Under the pieces are notes generated by a model, which had not been told where the DNA came from, made no database searches, and saw only the letters and a list, made by a program, of their open reading frames with translations. A program made the position numbers and the translations under genes. This document shows positions 12,693 to 25,422 of a DNA stretch of 39,762 bases, piece after piece. Source of the DNA: a virus. Taxonomy: Duplodnaviria; Heunggongvirae; Uroviricota; Caudoviricetes. Where the stretch lies: the IMG/VR virus record IMGVR_UViG_2541047839_000005. One strand, 5' to 3'. Positions within the stretch are counted from its first letter, which is position 1; every line of letters begins with the position of its first letter.

Positions 12693-12896
12693 GAGTATAG
12701 CCGCCAGCCATGAGTGTTGTATTAAAACAAGGATGTCTATATATGGGATAGCGAGAGTATGAATATCAGTTATTTTGAGAGTTAACTGATTGTGAAATTA
12801 GTTTTTTTCACAAACGAGTGGGGTTACTATGATGAGTGTTCTAATGCATAGGGAACACCTAATTTTTTCAATGAATTCAAATTGATAGGATCAAAA

Positions 12897-13826
12897 ATGG
12901 CACAACAGAGAACTACCTCCCTCAGATCCATACCTTTAGACTTAGATGTTAAGCAAGAGGCTGTCATTAACGGTATAGAAATGGGGGTACTCGATAACGG
13001 AATTCCGTACCTTACTCAGAATGGGTTGGCAAATGTTTGTGGTGTTCAGCGTTTGCGAATCAAGGAAATTACCGATGAGTGGGCTCAATCTGTTGAGAAC
13101 GGTATTTTCAAAAAAGGAAGAATGACTTTTATTGGTACATATCTTCTTAATGAAGGTTTTACAGATGAAAAACTTTATATACCAATAATTCGAAATGGTG
13201 TTGAGTACCATGCTTATCCAGATGTTGTATGCATGGCTATACTTGAATACTATGCCTTTGAAGCAAAACAAGCAGAAAGTGAGACTGCAATTAGATCTTA
13301 CAGAGAGCTTGCTAAAAAAGGCCTCAAGACATTTATATACGAGGCGCTAAAATATCAACCGGAGGACCCGTGGAGGCATTACCATGACAGAGTATCTTTA
13401 TTAAAAGATAAGGGAACCATACCTGATGGGTATTTCATTATATTTAATGAAATTGCAGGTATGATGGTAGATCTCATCAATGCTGGATTAGCGATTAATC
13501 AGCATACCGTACCTGATGGCAGTGTTGGTTCTTGCTGGGCGCGTCACTGGAAAGCAAAGGGGTTAGCAACAGAATTTGGAGAAAGAGTAGACTGTGAGCA
13601 TTATTACCCTGAAGATTTTCTTCAGGCAAGTTCCAATCCTCAGATCATTAATGCCTATCCTGATTCTGCATTGTCAGAGTTTCGTAGATGGTTTAAGCAT
13701 GAATATTTAACCACAAAGTTCCCACCGTATATTCTTAAAAAATCAAACGTGCTTCCTGGTGGTACAGAAGATGCTAATCGTCTGATAGAAGCTTTCAAAA
13801 AATCAGAGCTAGAAAATAAACCATAA
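12897..13826 (+). CDS. hypothetical cargo protein (309 aa), nin-region cassette
   Basis: ATG 12897 with AGGA about 6 nt upstream. AT-rich. Occupies the slot filled by ybcL/ybcM in K-12 DLP12. Family not recognised. Confidence 0.6.
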   Translation: MAQQRTTSLRSIPLDLDVKQEAVINGIEMGVLDNGIPYLTQNGLANVCGVQRLRIKEITDEWAQSVENGIFKKGRMTFIGTYLLNEGFTDEKLYIPIIRNGVEYHAYPDVVCMAILEYYAFEAKQAESETAIRSYRELAKKGLKTFIYEALKYQPEDPWRHYHDRVSLLKDKGTIPDGYFIIFNEIAGMMVDLINAGLAINQHTVPDGSVGSCWARHWKAKGLATEFGERVDCEHYYPEDFLQASSNPQIINAYPDSALSEFRRWFKHEYLTTKFPPYILKKSNVLPGGTEDANRLIEAFKKSELENKP

Positions 13827-14931: not shown

Positions 14932-15290
14932 ATACCTACAGTATCACATTACCCTGGCCGCCGAGCAATAATCGCTATTACCGCCATAATCGCGGGCGCA
15001 CGCACGTCAGCGCAGAGGGGCAGGCATACCGCGATAACGTCGCCCGAATCATTAAAAACGCAATGCTGGATATCGGCCTAGCTATGCCTGTGAAAATCCG
15101 CATTGAGTGCCACATGCCGGATCGCCGTCGCCGTGACCTGGATAATCTGCAAAAAGCCGCTTTTGACGCACTCACTAAAGCAGGTTTCTGGCTGGATGAT
15201 GCTCAGGTCGTTGATTACCGCGTTGTGAAGATGCCTGTTACCAAAGGTGGGAGGCTGGAACTGACCATCACCGAAATGGGGAATGAATGA
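14928..15290 (+). CDS. rusA: Holliday junction resolvase RusA
   Basis: 120 aa, [42 protein letters not shown]... matches RusA. Confidence 0.9.
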
Positions 15291-15427
15291 TGTTTGAGTT
15301 TAATATGGCAGAATTTCTTCGCCACCGCTGGGGGCGTCTGCGCTTATATCGTTTCCCCGGTTCTGTTTTGACCGATTACCGAATACTGAAGAATTACGCC
15401 AAAACCCTGACAGGAGCAGGAGTATGA
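15287..15427 (+). CDS. ylcG: YlcG-like small protein
   Basis: 46-aa [49 protein letters not shown], overlapping the rusA stop. Conserved position before Q. Confidence 0.5.
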
Positions 15428-15511
15428 AGTCAGAGATAACAATCAACTAATACTGTTTTGTTGATTTTTGCTTGTAATTGGCGTTCTGGCCTGATTTTGT
15501 GGAGAAAGTTG

Positions 15512-15868
15512 ATGCGTGATATGTATGAAGTAATGGATCGTTGGGGAGCTTGGGCTGCTTCAGACAATAGCGGAGTGGACTGGCAGCCGATAGCGGCTGG
15601 TTTCAAGGGACTTTTACCTCATGGCAAAAAGTCACGGATTCAGTGTGATGATGACGAAGGCATCATGATAGACAGTTGTGTGGCTCGGTTGAGAAGGTAT
15701 AAACCAGAGGAATATGAGCTCATCATCGCCCACTTTGTTATCGGTATCTCATTACGCACTATTGCGAAGAAGAGAAAATGCTCTGATGGCACAATTAGGA
15801 AGGAACTGCAAACTGCAATGGGGTTTGTTGACGGCTGTTTAGCAATGTTAGCTTATAGTATGGCATAA
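15512..15868 (+). CDS. quuD: late-gene antiterminator Q (QuuD-like)
   Basis: MRDMYEVMDRWGAWAAS...WQPIAAGFKGLLP... resembles phage-82/DLP12-type Q. Position is between rusA/ylcG and the lysis cassette. GGAGAAAG Shine-Dalgarno. Confidence 0.7.
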   Translation: MRDMYEVMDRWGAWAASDNSGVDWQPIAAGFKGLLPHGKKSRIQCDDDEGIMIDSCVARLRRYKPEEYELIIAHFVIGISLRTIAKKRKCSDGTIRKELQTAMGFVDGCLAMLAYSMA

Positions 15869-17062
15869 AAAATAAAATAGATTTACTGCCGATTTTTCAA
15901 AAAAGACTGGGAACTGTTTATATCCAACGTAAATAAGGCCTCCATAAAACATGGCTGATGCGAGATATTTAACAGTTCTCATCCTTTTTTTAGCTTTATC
16001 AATCAAACCTGTAATGCTACTCTTAATACTATCTGCATTATCTTTGATTTCTTTATTTTCTTCAAACTTTAAATACTTATCGAAAGCGGACTCCACTCGA
16101 GAACGTAAGTTGTCGAATGTTTCATTGAATATCTCAATAGAAATGTAATTGACTTTTTTTATCATCCAAAGTCCTGCGATAATCAATATTGCTTCGGTTG
16201 TTTCATTAGCCTTCACTAAGCCACCAGCTGCTATTAATGCACCGGGAATAGTCAATGCTTTTGTCTGATTAGATGATATGAATTCGTTAATTTTACTCGT
16301 GAACTCAAGATTTTTCTCATCGAGTTCGTTAAGAATTTTATTTACAGAAAACCTCTTTGTGTAAATCTCATATAGTTCATCATATTTTTTCCTGACGAGT
16401 TCAGTAGAGTTAAGCAAGTCAAAGAAATTGAACGTACCATTTGCTTTAAATACTTCGTTTATGGCTGAGCGTATAACGAGCTTGCGCTCGCTTTTGTGTA
16501 AATCATTGATTTTTATTGTGTCGAGAAGCTCCTTTATAATTTCATATTTAAGAGACGAGTTCGATAAGCGATTAATCTCGCTATATTGTAAAAAATGCGT
16601 GAGTTCGACTGTATAACTTTTGTCTTCATTGGTGAAAAATAAGACAGAGCAGTCACTGTTATGATGATCAGCAATTAATGAAAGGATATCTTTCCACATA
16701 AAGAAAATATGGATTTTTTCGATGCTTTCATTCTTAGAAGTAGGGAGTATTAACGGCGTTCCGATGATATAATTTTTCGGAAGAGCGTTTTGGGTGTTTA
16801 CTCTAGACCAAAAAGACTCAACATTCTCATAAATTATAGCATCATCCCAAGATGAAGCTTGGCGATCTAGCCAAATTTCATTATTTTCGATGCAGGTTGT
16901 TGCCTTTTTATAACCTATAGATTGTAACAGTCTAATTATTTCAGAACTATTTACAATAACAATGCTTTCTTCAAGACTTATGACAGTGTAGTAGCCCTCA
17001 ACTCTGCTTGAGGCTCCGTTAATAATCTGCGCTAATCTTGATAAGTCATCAGCAATTGTCAT
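15848..17062 (-). CDS. hypothetical membrane protein, second gene of the Q-to-holin cargo operon
   Basis: 404 aa. About 260-aa soluble N-terminal region, then hydrophobic helices (ALTIPGALIAAGGLV, AILIIAGLWMI, LASAMFYGGLIYVGY). Start ATG 17062 lies 2 nt after the upstream gene's stop. Very AT-rich. Confidence 0.65.
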   Translation of the reverse strand: MTIADDLSRLAQIINGASSRVEGYYTVISLEESIVIVNSSEIIRLLQSIGYKKATTCIENNEIWLDRQASSWDDAIIYENVESFWSRVNTQNALPKNYIIGTPLILPTSKNESIEKIHIFFMWKDILSLIADHHNSDCSVLFFTNEDKSYTVELTHFLQYSEINRLSNSSLKYEIIKELLDTIKINDLHKSERKLVIRSAINEVFKANGTFNFFDLLNSTELVRKKYDELYEIYTKRFSVNKILNELDEKNLEFTSKINEFISSNQTKALTIPGALIAAGGLVKANETTEAILIIAGLWMIKKVNYISIEIFNETFDNLRSRVESAFDKYLKFEENKEIKDNADSIKSSITGLIDKAKKRMRTVKYLASAMFYGGLIYVGYKQFPVFFEKSAVNLFYFLCHTIS

Positions 17063-17064
17063 TA

Positions 17065-18239
17065 TTAGCTGTCTCTATATCTTTTGAGTTCATCATAATT
17101 TGCCTGACTCAATTTTATCACAATTTCGCATTTGTTGTCAGTGAGAATTACAGGCTTATTTGACTTTTCGTCTCCAATAGCTCCACGCATTATTTTCAAC
17201 TTAAAATTATTGTCGTTATCTGCCACTTCAATTGTAAGCGCGCTTTCAGCTGCTTTAGGAGTTGGTTCAAATTGAGGGTCAATCTGGAAACCATTAAGAT
17301 TAACAAAATCGACAAACGTTCCCTTACATTTGTGTGAATCAGTCAGGCATGAGTCAATTATTTTTGAAATATCCTCTATCTTAACGGACTTATTTCCGTG
17401 TTTATCTTTTGATTTTTTTCCAGTAAGGATTTAACTTCATTGTCAATAGTATCACGCAGTACACGACCGAGTGAGTTTTTACTAGCAAAAATATCTATAG
17501 CACTGAATAATTGCTGAATGCTTCTTTTATTGTCCGAATCATGTCGGCAACCTAATGAGTCTTTGAAAAAATCGCTTTTAGATTTACCTTGCAAGAAATG
17601 TACATATGAGTCACCCTTGTTTTCTGGATAACTGGCTTCGAATAAAGTTAAATCGAACATCGCAGCCTGCCGTAAGGCATCGGTATTAATTGGATTTAAT
17701 CTTGTTGGGGTCAACTTATCCGAATCAAAGTCATAGGCGCTTTGTTTATCAACCATTACGATTAGAAGTTTCCCCAAATCCTCTGGTTCGGTAGACTTAT
17801 AGTGGATGAAAACAACGCTCCCCCCCTGAAGTTGGGCAACTCTCGATTCGTTATTAGCATTATGTTTAAGCTTCTCTATTATAGCTCTAGATAAATCAAT
17901 GAATTCATTATTCTTATTAATGTATTTTTTTAGGATCGTAGGAATGGATGAAGGGTTGTGATCTGAGTCTAGGAAGTTATGAAATTTGTTTTTTCGGCTA
18001 AATTTTTTCTCAATTCTGGTTATGAATTCAGATGTGACTTCATTTTTTAGATCCCAAACTTCACCTAATCGATAATCAAATGCTCTTGAATCATTTTTTT
18101 CAAGATTTGCTGTTACAGCACCAATAGGAAAGTACGATTGTTTGCCCAGCACTACAACATGAGGCGTGGCACCGCATTTATCGCAAGCTACAGTTGGGTC
18201 GTCAAGAACATTGCCACATTCTAAACAAGTTATATCCAT
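17065..18239 (-). pseudogene. zinc-ribbon plus NdpA/YejK-like protein, reading frame broken at a homopolymer
   Basis: N-terminal CxxC..CxxC zinc ribbon (CLECGN...CDKCG). Central region resembles remembered nucleoid-associated YejK (GGSVVFIHY...LLIVMVD; YVHFLQGKSKSDFFKDSLG). The ORF stops at 17376, but a second frame stays open from the T7 run (plus 17411..17417) to TAA 17065..17067 and encodes a YejK-like C-terminus. Confidence 0.6.
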
Positions 18240-18357
18240 TATATATCCCGAATTATAAGAATGAATTTTTATGTGGCTGAAAATTCTATCAAAACACTAA
18301 CGCGTACGCAAAAAATATCGTAATCTGTTAAGTGTGCTCACTTCGCCACACAGCTTA

Positions 18358-18390
18358 AACCCGCCATCGAGCGGGTTTTGTCGTTTCTGG
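18358..18390 (+). terminator. terminator-like hairpin upstream of holin (possible tR' analogue)
   Basis: AAACCCGC-catcga-GCGGGTTT followed by TGTCGTTT, about 140 nt upstream of the holin start. Confidence 0.4.
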
Positions 18391-18530
18391 GTCTGGGGAT
18401 TCCTTGGTCCTAGCCTATCCCGCAGTTATCCATTGACTCGGCTTCTTTGACGTTTCCGCTTCTGATTTGCGGTACATGATGTTTCCTCAATTTGCACCTG
18501 CTGTATCAGCGAGGTGAGAGATAACTACAA

Positions 18531-18857
18531 ATGCCTCATAACCCAAATACATGGCTGGAGTTGGTCCAGAGCTGGTGGCGTGGAGACACACCGCTGGGCG
18601 CAGTGATTATGTCGATTGTTATGGCTGGTTTACGTATTGCCTATTTTGGCGGTGGTGGCGGCTGGAAGCGAAAAACACTCGAAATTCTACTCTGTGGCGC
18701 TCTGACGCTGACTTTTGCATCCGCTCTTGAGTATGTCGGATGGCCTAAATCACTATCTGTTGCCATTGGTGGTGGGGTGGGGCTGATCGGTGTTGATGCT
18801 ATTCGTGGGGCTGCAATGAGAGTAATCGGTAACAAGTTTGGTGGCTCTAAGGAGTAA
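18531..18857 (+). CDS. holin (class I, three predicted TM helices)
   Basis: 108 aa with three hydrophobic segments and a charged C-terminus. Immediately precedes the endolysin gene. Confidence 0.7.
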   Translation: MPHNPNTWLELVQSWWRGDTPLGAVIMSIVMAGLRIAYFGGGGGWKRKTLEILLCGALTLTFASALEYVGWPKSLSVAIGGGVGLIGVDAIRGAAMRVIGNKFGGSKE

Positions 18858-18860
18858 TTT

Positions 18861-19337
18861 ATGCAGGTACTAAATTCCCAGCGTAAAGCTTTCCTTGATA
18901 TGGTGGCATGGTCAGAGGGAACGGATAACGGGCGACAACCGACACGTAACCACGGTTATGACGTTATTGTCGGTGGAGAACTCTTCACTGATTACTCCGA
19001 TCACCCTCGCAAACTTGTCACGCTAAACCCGAAACTCAAATCAACAGCTGCAGGCCGTTATCAACTTCTTTCACGCTGGTGGGTTGCTTACCGCAAGCAG
19101 CTTGGCCTGAAAGACTTCTCTCCGAAAAGCCAGGACGCTGTGGCACTGCAACAGATTAAAGAGCGTGGCGCTTTACCGATGATTGATCGCGGTGATATTC
19201 GTCAGGCTATCGACCGTTGCAGCAATATCTGGGCTTCACTTCCGGGCGCTGGTTATGGTCAGTTCGAGCATAAGGCTGACAGCCTGATTGCAAAATTCAA
19301 AGAAGCGGGCGGAATGGTCAGAGAGATTGAGGTATGA
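18861..19337 (+). CDS. R: endolysin R (lambda-type lytic transglycosylase)
   Basis: 158 aa, near-identical to lambda R ([66 protein letters not shown]...). Confidence 0.95.
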
Positions 19338-19798
19338 ACAGATTAACCGCGATTATCTCCGCTCTGGTTATCTGCATCATCGTCTGTCTGTCATGGGCGG
19401 TTAATCATTACCGTGATAACGCCATTACCTACAAAGCCCAGCGCGACAAAAATGCCAGAGAACTGAAGCTGGCGAACGCGGCAATTACTGACATGCAGAT
19501 GCGTCAGCGTGATGTTGCTGCGCTCGATGCAAAATACACGAAGGAGTTAGCTGATGCGAAAGCTGAAAATGATGCTCTGCGTGATGATGTTGCCGCTGGT
19601 CGTCGTCGGTTGCACATCAAAGCAGTCTGTCAGTCAGTGCGTGAAGCCACCACCGCCTCCGGCGTGGATAATGCAGCCTCCCCCCGACTGGCAGACACCG
19701 CTGAACGGGATTATTTCACCCTCAGAGCGCGACTGATAATAATGCAAAAACAACTTGAAGGGGCACAGCTATACATTCGAGAGCAATGCCTCAGATAA
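19334..19798 (+). CDS. Rz: i-spanin Rz
   Basis: 154 aa, matches lambda Rz ([68 protein letters not shown]...). Confidence 0.9.
19554..19736 (+). CDS. Rz1: o-spanin Rz1 (lipoprotein, embedded in Rz in +1 frame)
   Basis: 60 aa with lipobox LVVVGC and a proline-rich mature region. Wholly inside Rz, as in lambda. Confidence 0.85.
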
Positions 19799-20105
19799 AA
19801 ACCGGCCAAGGATAATCCGCTGAAGATTCGCCGGTGGCTAAAGTGTGCCAAGAGTTCAATTTACGCAATTACTCCTGTCGATGCTATGTACCGTCTTTGT
19901 GAAGTCAATGGATACCTGATTTATTTCTGTGCGCTGTATCGTCGCTGTACTCTTGCATTAATTATGACTGTAGCCTGACGGGGAACTCCTTCTGCACAAG
20001 TGTGGGGGAATAATCAAAAACGATGCACACCGGGGTTACCGGGTACACATATTTCATCATGCCAGCGAGTCCGGTTCTGGCACGGAAGAAACCGGACGTT
20101 ATGAT

Positions 20106-20516
20106 TTAGTGCGGAAATATTTGTGTAGTGTTCTGAATGTTCTCAGTAAAGAGTAATGAATTATCAAAGGTATAGTAATACCTTTTGTTTTCGTGGATAT
20201 TTGTAATCCATCTGAAAACCCCTGCTGTAGCAAGATTTTTCCTGTATTCGTAAAATGATAACTCTCCTGATTTGAATCCTTTTAAGGTGGCTTCTATAAG
20301 GCATTTATTTTTTGAAAATCTTACATTTACAACCTTACCCTGTCCTTTTATTAAAACCGTATTATCGTTTTCAAGAACAAGATGAATATTCTCTGTGGCT
20401 AAATAGTAAATGTAATGTGAGACATTGTGACGTTTTAGTTCAGAATAAAACCAGTGATAGTTTAAATTATTTCGCACTTTATCGAATATTTGTTTAAAAA
20501 TGGCAATCTGAGCCAT
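20106..20516 (-). CDS. ybcV: YbcV-like protein (DUF1398 family)
   Basis: 136 aa from [43 protein letters not shown], resembling DLP12 YbcV. GGAAGG Shine-Dalgarno. AT-rich. Confidence 0.7.
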
Positions 20517-20573
20517 TGTAGTACCTTCCATGTGATATGAGGGGGGGTAGTCTGCACGATTATCTAAATTGCT

Positions 20574-20807
20574 TCAATCTGGTCTGACCTGTTTTCTGAG
20601 CAATTCAGTAATGTCACTCTTTTCTTTGTTTGCTTCAGGCGAAACTCTTTTTTCTGAGCACAGTCTCCGGCGGCAGGCTTCAATGACCCAGGCTGAGAAA
20701 TTCCCGGACCCTTTTTGCTCAAGAGCGATGTTAATTTGTTCAATCATTTGGTTAGGAAAGCGGATGTTGCGGGTTGTTGTTCTGCGGGTTCTGTTCTTCG
20801 TTGACAT
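20574..20807 (-). CDS. small DNA-binding protein (YlcI/DUF3950-like, ribbon-helix-helix-like)
   Basis: 77 aa. RNIRFPNQMIEQINIALEQKGSGNFSAWVIEACRRRL resembles the remembered YlcI family found next to prophage terminase genes. Confidence 0.5.
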   Translation of the reverse strand: MSTKNRTRRTTTRNIRFPNQMIEQINIALEQKGSGNFSAWVIEACRRRLCSEKRVSPEANKEKSDITELLRKQVRPD

Positions 20808-20969
20808 GAGGTTGCCCCGTATTCAGTGTCGCTGATTTGTATTGTCTGAAGTTGTTTTTACGTTAAGTTGATGCAGATCAATTAATACGATACCTGCGTC
20901 ATAATTGATTATTTGACGTGGTTTGATGGCGTAGATGCACGTTGTGACATGTAGATGATAATTATTATC

Positions 20970-21195
20970 ATTTTGCGGGTCCTTTCCGGCGATCCGGCAG
21001 GCTACGGGGCGGAAGGCGCGCGGGTTTTCGCTATTTATGAAAATTTTCCGGTTTAAGGTGTTTCCGTTCTTCTTCGCCGTAACCTAATGTTTTTATTTAA
21101 AACACCCCCTGAAAAGAAAGGAAACGACAGGTGCTGAAAACAGGCCTTTTGGCCTCTGTCGTTTCCTTTCTCTGTTTTTGTCCGTGGAATGAACA
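20970..21195 (+). other. prophage cos region (cosQ, variant cosN, cosB)
   Basis: Co-linear with the lambda genome ends: GGGTCCTTTCCGGCGATCC...ACG then GGGCGGAAGGCG (21007..21018, against lambda GGGCGGCGACCT) then CGCGGGTTTTCGCTATTTATGAAAATTTTCCGGTTTAAGG... up to Nu1. Confidence 0.8.
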
Positions 21196-21715
21196 ATGGA
21201 AGTCAACAAAAAGCAGCTGGCTGACATTTTCGGTGCGAGTATCCGTACCATTCAGAACTGGCAGGAGCAGGGAATGCCCGTTCTGCGAGGCGGTGGCAAG
21301 GGTAATGAGGTGCTTTATGACTCTGCCGCCGTCATAAAATGGTATGCCGAAAGGGATGCTGAAATTGAGAACGAAAAGCTGCGCCGGGAGGTTGAAGAAT
21401 TACGGCTGGCCAGCGAGGCAGATCTTCACCCCGGAACACTTGAATTTGAGCGCCATCGCCTGACTCGTGCTCAGGCGACGGCGCAGGAACTGAAAAATGC
21501 CAAAGAATCGGCTGAAGTGGTGGAAACCGCATTCTGTACTTTCGTGCTGTCGCGTATAGCAAGGGAAATATCCAGTATTCTCGACGGTATTCCTCTGTCG
21601 GTGCAGCGACGTTTTCCTGAGCTGGATAACCGGCATATTGATTTCCTGAAACGGGATATCATCAAAGCCATGAACAAAGCAGCCGCGCTGGATGAACTGA
21701 TACCGGGGTTGCTGA

Positions 21716-21741
<26 letters not shown>
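21196..21741 (+). CDS. nu1: terminase small subunit Nu1
   Basis: 181 aa, near-identical to lambda Nu1 (MEVNKKQLADIFGASIRTIQNWQEQGMPVLRGGGKGNEVLYDSAAVIKWYAERDAEIENEKLRREVEELR...). Confidence 0.95.

Positions 21742-25422
<3,681 letters not shown>

Follow-up and report, generated by a model that had tools for sequence, protein, structure and literature searches.

What kind of genes fill the AT-rich antisense slot between the antiterminator gene Q and the holin gene of the lambdoid prophage in IMG/VR record IMGVR_UViG_2541047839_000005, and is the copy in this record able to work? The record was analysed as one stretch of 39,762 nucleotides, hereafter the window. According to ORF calls, the slot holds two open reading frames (ORFs) on the minus strand, at 15848-17062 (404 aa) and 17376-18239 (287 aa). 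A sequence-only reading of the window had guessed that they form a defence system, with a nucleic-acid-binding-type component and a membrane-type partner in a prophage hotspot, and had recognized no named system in them. The guess was borne out, since the pair corresponds to the published anti-phage system DS-1; the statement that it was not any named defence system did not hold, as DS-1 is named in the DefensePredictor study, in NCBIfam models and in RefSeq annotation. We refer to the first gene of the pair, to which the 287-aa ORF belongs, as gene A (product DS-1A) and to the second as gene B (product DS-1B). Our overall reading, to which we assign a probability of about 0.6, is that DS-1 occupies the Q-holin slot, that its mechanism would by analogy be that of the type II PANGU system, and that this copy is most likely inactive.

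Identification of the cassette as DS-1

Profile searches assigned both proteins to DS-1 defence models and not to a characterized non-defence function. The truncated 287-aa ORF of gene A still scored 349 bits on the NCBIfam equivalog model NF053868 (DS1_1_antiphage, 'nucleoid-associated anti-phage protein'; cutoff 330). Gene B scored 375.2 bits on the equivalog model NF053869 (DS1_2_antiphage, 'anti-phage protein'; cutoff 315), with a match over profile positions 1-337, the whole model. The product of gene B was 100% identical to WP_000150292.1, and alignment of gene A with the intact allele WP_000355468.1 revealed a single-base difference. These two accessions together constitute DS-1 (working id D390), which is marked as defensive (TRUE) in Table S6 of PMC13092281. 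RefSeq already labels the identical locus 'nucleoid-associated anti-phage protein / anti-phage protein'. Judged by sequence, the cassette is an already published, named and curated anti-phage system, and it is not new. No family of PADLOC-DB v2.0.0 (2023) matched A, B or the remnant ORF described below at E values up to 1; the earlier non-recognition is explained by the lack of a model for either protein in that release.

DS-1 was reported by DeWeirdt, Mahoney and Laub in the DefensePredictor study (bioRxiv 2025, 10.1101/2025.01.08.631726; Science 2026), with the source locus at NZ_RRVY01000002.1 220602-222994 (PMC13092281). For the assay, a low-copy plasmid carried the system under its native promoter in E. 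coli MG1655, which was challenged with 24 phages (PMC13092281). In the scored rows, the -log10 efficiency of plating was 7.6 for Bas1, 2.7 for Bas26, 1.7 for both Bas3 and T3, 1.0 for T5, 0.9 for T7 and -0.15 for SECphi27 (Table S7, PMC13092281). Bas01-13 belong to the Drexlerviridae, and Bas26 is a T5-like member of the Markadamsvirinae; Bas01 and Bas03 count as T1-like, and protection was weak for Bas03, T3, T5 and T7. The result is listed as replicated (TRUE), and HHpred assigned YejK/NA37 with a probability of 1 (Table S8, PMC13092281). The YejK domain was named there as newly implicated in defence, and DS-1 was not taken further (PMC13092281).

The published DS-1 and the pair in the window share the same two proteins, gene order, 2-nt junction and prophage context. 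They differ in one respect: the validated construct carried an intact 391-aa gene A, whereas the window carries a -1 frameshift allele that encodes 287 aa and lacks the C-terminal domain.

DS-1A is a YejK-like protein

Gene A contains an NA37/YejK core (Pfam PF04245, 1.1e-21). The AlphaFold2 (AF2) model of intact DS-1A had a predicted local distance difference test score (pLDDT) of 83 and a predicted template modelling score of 0.74, and its sole significant match in the PDB was E. coli YejK (9be2; Foldseek E 7.7e-15, 366 columns). A search of the DS-1A family profile against PDB sequences gave the same answer, YejK, at 8.8e-20. The sequence-only reading had proposed a zinc ribbon joined to an NdpA/YejK core; the core was established by PF04245 and 9be2, and the zinc ribbon remains putative. 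The motif in question, CxxC-X10-CxxC (residues 5-22), is encoded at 18174-18227 on the minus strand. Pfam zinc-ribbon models matched gene A only below threshold (E 0.05-0.2), AF2 confidence was low across the CxxC region, and the zinc-ribbon call is therefore drawn from the four cysteines only. All four cysteines were kept in 21 of the 42 aligned DS-1A homologues, comprising every Enterobacterales member and two others, and relatives from Pseudomonas and other genera carried an acidic tail in place of the motif. Given the retention of the motif in Enterobacterales and the acidic tail elsewhere, the putative zinc ribbon is a clade-specific addition.

YejK (NdpA) is a housekeeping 37-kDa nucleoid-associated protein of E. 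coli. DS-1A has the whole fold and the Pfam NA37 domain in common with it, but the two share only ~19% identity, and DS-1A fails the YejK equivalog model NF001557 (70.7 bits, cutoff 341). Unlike YejK, DS-1A possesses an extra N-terminal CxxC...CxxC extension, is borne on mobile elements and invariably has a B gene as its partner. From these sequence comparisons, DS-1A is a paralogous, mobile-element-borne branch relative to YejK.

A frameshift truncates DS-1A in the window

The DS-1A gene of the window (17065-18239, minus strand) is 1175 nt long instead of 1176. The alignment showed a run of seven T at 17413-17419 (A7 on the coding strand), where the PEC403 copy, 99.96% identical, has T8; this was the only difference, and it marks the site of a -1 frameshift relative to the A8 of the intact allele. 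In the A8 allele, gene A encodes 391 aa from 18239 to 17065, and its TAA lies 2 nt from the ATG of DS-1B at 17062. In the window, the A frame still ends at 17065 and the B ATG stands at 17062, so that the genes keep the A-before-B order on one strand and are adjacent at the DNA level. The truncated 287-aa ORF (17376-18239, minus strand) encodes the exact protein that RefSeq lists as WP_001588485.1; it keeps the zinc-ribbon motif and the greater part of the NA37 core and matches positions 3-277 of the 369-position NF053868 profile. A remnant ORF of 53 aa (17065-17226, minus strand) represents the out-of-frame C-terminal end of DS-1A; it matches NF053868 positions 332-369 and stops 2 nt before the DS-1B ATG. 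The sequence-only reading had missed this lesion and had described the genes as translationally coupled. In the window, a gap of 313 nt separates the stop of the 287-aa ORF at 17376 from the DS-1B ATG, and coupling through the 2-nt junction applies to the intact allele only.

Truncation removes residues 277-391, and AF2 modelling of full-length DS-1A places the C-terminal domain at residues 288-391. Because the 1-bp deletion removes this domain, the copy has most likely been turned off or is in decay. The locus was present in 106 or 107 E. coli complete-genome records, depending on the query, among which 87 carried exactly T8, 4 carried T7 and 2 carried T9. The window copy is a minority allele, and probably an inactive one.

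Disrupted forms of gene A were widespread. The exact 287-aa protein occurred on 373 contigs from many sources, and a +1 slip of the A8 run yielded a 279-aa form (P0003) on 97 contigs. The T7 allele also occurred in a prophage of another kind, which resembles Stx phages and differs from that of the window in Q and in the variant of B, and the T9 allele was found in a DLP12-type prophage. The occurrence of -1 and +1 alleles in different prophages indicated that the A8 run is a recurrent mutation site. Slip alleles of this run were located in public E. coli genomes at L023 5996-6859 and L024 3185-4361. Further disrupted forms of 337, 265 and 230 aa (the last on 87 contigs) had lesions outside the homopolymer. 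Gene B encoded the full 404 aa in the frameshifted copies examined (the window, LWY24, 2018-166 and PK12).

These alleles bear on whether the frameshift inactivates the system at all. It could be an assembly error in the homopolymer, or slippage on the A-run could restore enough full-length DS-1A; the lesion sits in an 8-nt homopolymer, a classic spot for sequencing errors and slippage, and gene B is intact in the slip alleles. We consider this unlikely. The 287-aa product on 373 contigs, with a RefSeq accession of its own, argues for a real allele, and A7 runs slip inefficiently. In a variant of the slippage explanation, the A-run would act as a reversible on/off switch, that is, as a contingency locus at which A7 and A9 slips toggle the system while the effector stays intact, and the window would hold a phase-off variant. 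The public -1 and +1 alleles in separate prophage backgrounds would suit such a switch. Nevertheless, the lesions outside the homopolymer (the 337-, 230- and 265-aa forms) look more like decay than programmed switching, and the EKKSKDK of the E. coli protein is ERKSKDK in the Klebsiella orthologue, so the run is probably not conserved, as judged from the protein. Phase switching appears to us even more doubtful than a harmless frameshift, and we retain the reading that the window copy is probably inactive.

DS-1B is a putative membrane effector

DS-1B (15848-17062, minus strand; NF053869) is a 404-aa putative membrane effector. In its AF2 model (pLDDT 84.7), an alpha/beta N-terminal domain (approximately residues 1-160) was accompanied by a stalk made of helices and by long helices bearing hydrophobic stretches. 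Three family-conserved hydrophobic segments were found at residues 269-283, 291-305 and 367-381. The soluble N-terminal domain and C-terminal transmembrane helices noted at first sight of the sequence correspond to this alpha/beta domain and to the hydrophobic helices. Conservation is highest in the block of residues 226-284, which takes in the stalk and the first of the hydrophobic helices. The N-terminal domain was acidic in the family as a whole; its net charge in DS-1B was -9 per 160 aa, compared with a family median of -6 per ~165 aa, and the C-terminal region of the family was net positive.

Searches with gene B yielded little. Pfam returned noise only (SWIB and CdvA; E above 0.09), and the B family profile had no match among PDB sequences. 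Structure prediction placed A in the YejK fold, and fold searches with B had no significant outcome.

The pair is conserved across Gammaproteobacteria

Homologue searches retrieved 110 relatives for A and 69 for B, and contigs from one list recurred in the other. In 16 of 16 distinct loci, all from Gammaproteobacteria, an NA37 gene lay directly upstream of B on the same strand, abutting or overlapping it. These loci comprised 12 species-level genomes, Serratia, Pseudoalteromonas, a second Pseudoteredinibacter assembly and a distant Pokkaliibacter locus (profile E 9e-24). The 12 genomes include Pseudescherichia, Yersinia, Proteus, Morganella, Phytobacter, Pantoea, Pseudomonas, Colwellia, Thalassotalea and Pseudoteredinibacter. 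At the Yersinia locus, the contig ends within the NA37 gene. The co-occurrence check that the sequence-only reading had called for was accordingly positive. An exhaustive profile search found 769 representatives of the B family at 50% identity clustering, 363 of them at E up to 1e-10; with 769 representatives, this is a large family. Several DS-1-like loci adjoin AbiEii, AAA_21, BstA_C, integrases or prophage genes.

Three loci deserve separate description. In Serratia marcescens, a BstA_C gene (L006 7423-8334) adjoins the DS-1-like pair. Photorhabdus viridis (L022 2594-3972) carries a decayed pair, with a fragment of A and a B gene split into three ORFs. A complete DS-1-like pair, with a B protein 38% identical, was present on the 2.6-kb contig L012 of a metagenome-assembled genome labelled 'Lactobacillales bacterium'. 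All other hits were gammaproteobacterial, and this pair is probably a binning artefact rather than a cross-phylum transfer.

Proposed mechanism by analogy with type II PANGU

PANGU systems, defined in a 2026 preprint, consist of a YejK-like nucleoid-associated protein and an effector, and the type II system is made up of Pag2A and Pag2B (10.64898/2026.04.06.716658). Pag2B has an acidic N-terminal domain that mimics DNA and a C-terminal transmembrane region (10.64898/2026.04.06.716658). Pag2A-GFP leaves the nucleoid upon T4 infection, and Pag2A binds the Pag2B N-terminal domain with a dissociation constant of 19 nM (10.64898/2026.04.06.716658). The system needs both genes, neither of which is toxic by itself, and the outcomes of infection resemble those of abortive infection (10.64898/2026.04.06.716658).

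DS-1 shares this architecture. Its first gene encodes an NA37/YejK-like protein at the head of a two-gene operon, as in type II PANGU, and both systems have a partner of ~400 aa with an acidic soluble N-terminal domain and C-terminal hydrophobic helices; the comparison is one of architecture. The acidity of the DS-1B N-terminal domain and the C-terminal hydrophobic segments of the protein would be in line with the description of Pag2B. One of the tested examples of type II PANGU, PANGU-Ecu, comes from E. coli. The putative zinc ribbon is one difference, since none is mentioned for Pag2A and DS-1A has the CxxC motif.

Because the architecture is the same, we adopted the type II PANGU model as the most likely mechanism of DS-1. 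By this analogy, DS-1A would sit on the chromosome as a nucleoid-associated protein with a YejK fold, and a phage that degrades or remodels host DNA would release it. Free DS-1A would then bind the acidic N-terminal domain of DS-1B, whose hydrophobic C-terminal helices would damage the inner membrane, and the infection would be aborted.

The natural alleles speak to the direction of control. Many natural alleles combine a disrupted A with an intact B (truncated products of 287 aa on 373 contigs, of 279 aa on 97 and of 230 aa on 87), so that B alone is evidently tolerated, and this suggested that A activates B. This supports the view that DS-1A is an activator and not an antitoxin. Some features would suit an addiction module, with B as a membrane toxin and A as its antitoxin, or non-defence lysogenic-conversion cargo with a by-product effect on phages: like many morons, the cassette is prophage cargo that is AT-rich and antisense, and B is a membrane-type protein with no enzymatic motif. 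Against this, A is disrupted and B intact on hundreds of contigs, which would be lethal if A neutralized B, and neither gene was toxic alone in the PANGU study. In addition, DS-1 defended from its native promoter on a low-copy plasmid in a replicated assay, and relatives of the pair lie in defence neighbourhoods. We regard either form as highly improbable. The toxin-antitoxin reading was rejected on the frequency of A-null, B-intact alleles.

Several observations weigh against our overall reading. The proposed kinship of DS-1 to Pag2A/Pag2B is by shared architecture, and no mechanistic experiment has been published for DS-1 itself. Next to classic DNA mimics, the N-terminal domain of DS-1B is only mildly acidic (isoelectric point ~4.8-5.2). 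The hydrophobic segments of DS-1B are short (~15 residues; average of the best 19-residue Kyte-Doolittle window, 1.56), and spanning of the membrane is predicted. Foldseek gave no match for DS-1B below E 0.2, and the top hits were the ClyA-family toxins MakA, SmhB and AhlB. As a weak lead, DS-1B might form alpha-helical pores as ClyA does, working from within the cell once the nucleoid protein binds it. The frameshift in the window was read from one assembly. Finally, DS-1 blocks T1-like and T5-like phages (T4 was not among the scored rows), whereas PANGU-Ecu blocks T4 and lets T1 and T5 escape (10.64898/2026.04.06.716658).

This difference in phage range would also suit another explanation, in which DS-1A, with its zinc ribbon and NA37 body, directly recognizes phage DNA or protein and DS-1B blocks genome entry or early steps at the membrane. 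Such a system would exclude phages without cell death and independently of any sensing of host-chromosome degradation. The full block of Bas01 (no plaques, >7 logs) is typical of entry or early blocks, the clade-specific zinc ribbon could add a recognition function, and the system is encoded by a prophage, an element in which superinfection exclusion is common. YejK-family proteins bind DNA without known sequence specificity, which counts against direct recognition, as does the behaviour of the related type II PANGU, which acts as abortive infection with relocalization of the sensor. There is also no evidence for DS-1A at the membrane before infection. We judged direct exclusion improbable and kept the type II PANGU analogy as the preferred mechanism.

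Location of the cassette and neighbouring genes

A lambdoid prophage of the DLP12/argU type carries the DS-1 cassette between Q and the holin, as cargo in antisense orientation. The gene order of the prophage is that of DLP12, the argU/intD site is occupied by the prophage in related complete genomes, and nmpC, likewise antisense, fills the same quuD-essD slot in K-12 DLP12. GC content was 0.33-0.38 inside the cassette and ~0.50 on either side, and homology breakpoints set its borders near 15840 and 18291. The coordinates, the GC content and the nmpC position all agreed with the initial description of an AT-rich antisense two-gene cassette between Q and the holin. On one flank, the antiterminator gene Q (15458/15512-15868, plus strand) is convergent with DS-1B and overlaps its 3' end by 21 nt. 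On the other flank lies a lambda-family holin gene (18531-18857, plus strand). The cassette was absent from deposited phage genomes at the megablast level, where only Q and the holin matched.

A promoter-like site, TTGATA-16-AAAAAT (18265-18292, minus strand), lies 26 nt upstream of the DS-1A ATG and is a candidate native promoter from a consensus scan only. The region contained 12 promoter-like sites against 10.6 expected, with no excess over shuffles, and the scan was uninformative for placing pR'. Between the cassette and the holin, we found a strong terminator-like hairpin (18357-18378, plus strand) with an 8-bp stem containing five GC pairs, followed by a T-run. It falls within a stretch upstream of S that is conserved with the Shigella phages SfII and SfIV. 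This hairpin, which is flanking context outside DS-1, may be a tR'-type terminator.

The same slot holds other cargo in related phages. In Shigella phage SfII (L009 841-2455), it carries, antisense, the PADLOC candidate PDC-M53A/B (2.1e-32 and 2.8e-54). In the Stx2a_1447 phage (L010 2899-4462), it carries a pair of 343 aa and 179 aa with no NCBIfam or PADLOC match. NmpC of DLP12 and PDC-M53 of SfII are, like DS-1, AT-rich cargo in the same slot and the same antisense orientation, but nmpC encodes a porin, PDC-M53 is a PADLOC candidate defence pair, and their genes are unrelated to DS-1. The antisense Q-holin slot looks like a defence hotspot.

Two other genes of the same prophage were recorded. 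A BstA abortive-infection gene (PADLOC BstA, 3.8e-121), named 'BstA C-terminal domain-containing protein' in RefSeq, is located at 12882-13826 on the plus strand, ~2 kb upstream of Q. After Rz comes a DUF1398 gene (YbcV-like; Pfam 3.3e-43), AT-rich and antisense, at 20106-20531 on the minus strand. In the closest complete genomes, iss/bor stands at the position of this DUF1398 gene. Owing to this exchange, coverage of window positions 15000-22000 by any complete E. coli genome of the collection stayed at or below 89%. Strains LWY24 and EC17GD31 were considered as the origin of the window and rejected on this ground.

Implications for DS-1

A defence system was correctly recognized from raw sequence, but it had been published in 2025-2026, and its recognition here is no discovery. 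The PANGU model supplies a concrete, testable hypothesis for DS-1, though the reported phage ranges of the two systems are nearly opposite. DS-1 has no published mechanism of its own. Natural sensor-null, effector-intact alleles, including the one in the window, are ready-made controls, and they speak for a sensor that switches the effector on and does not hold it in check.

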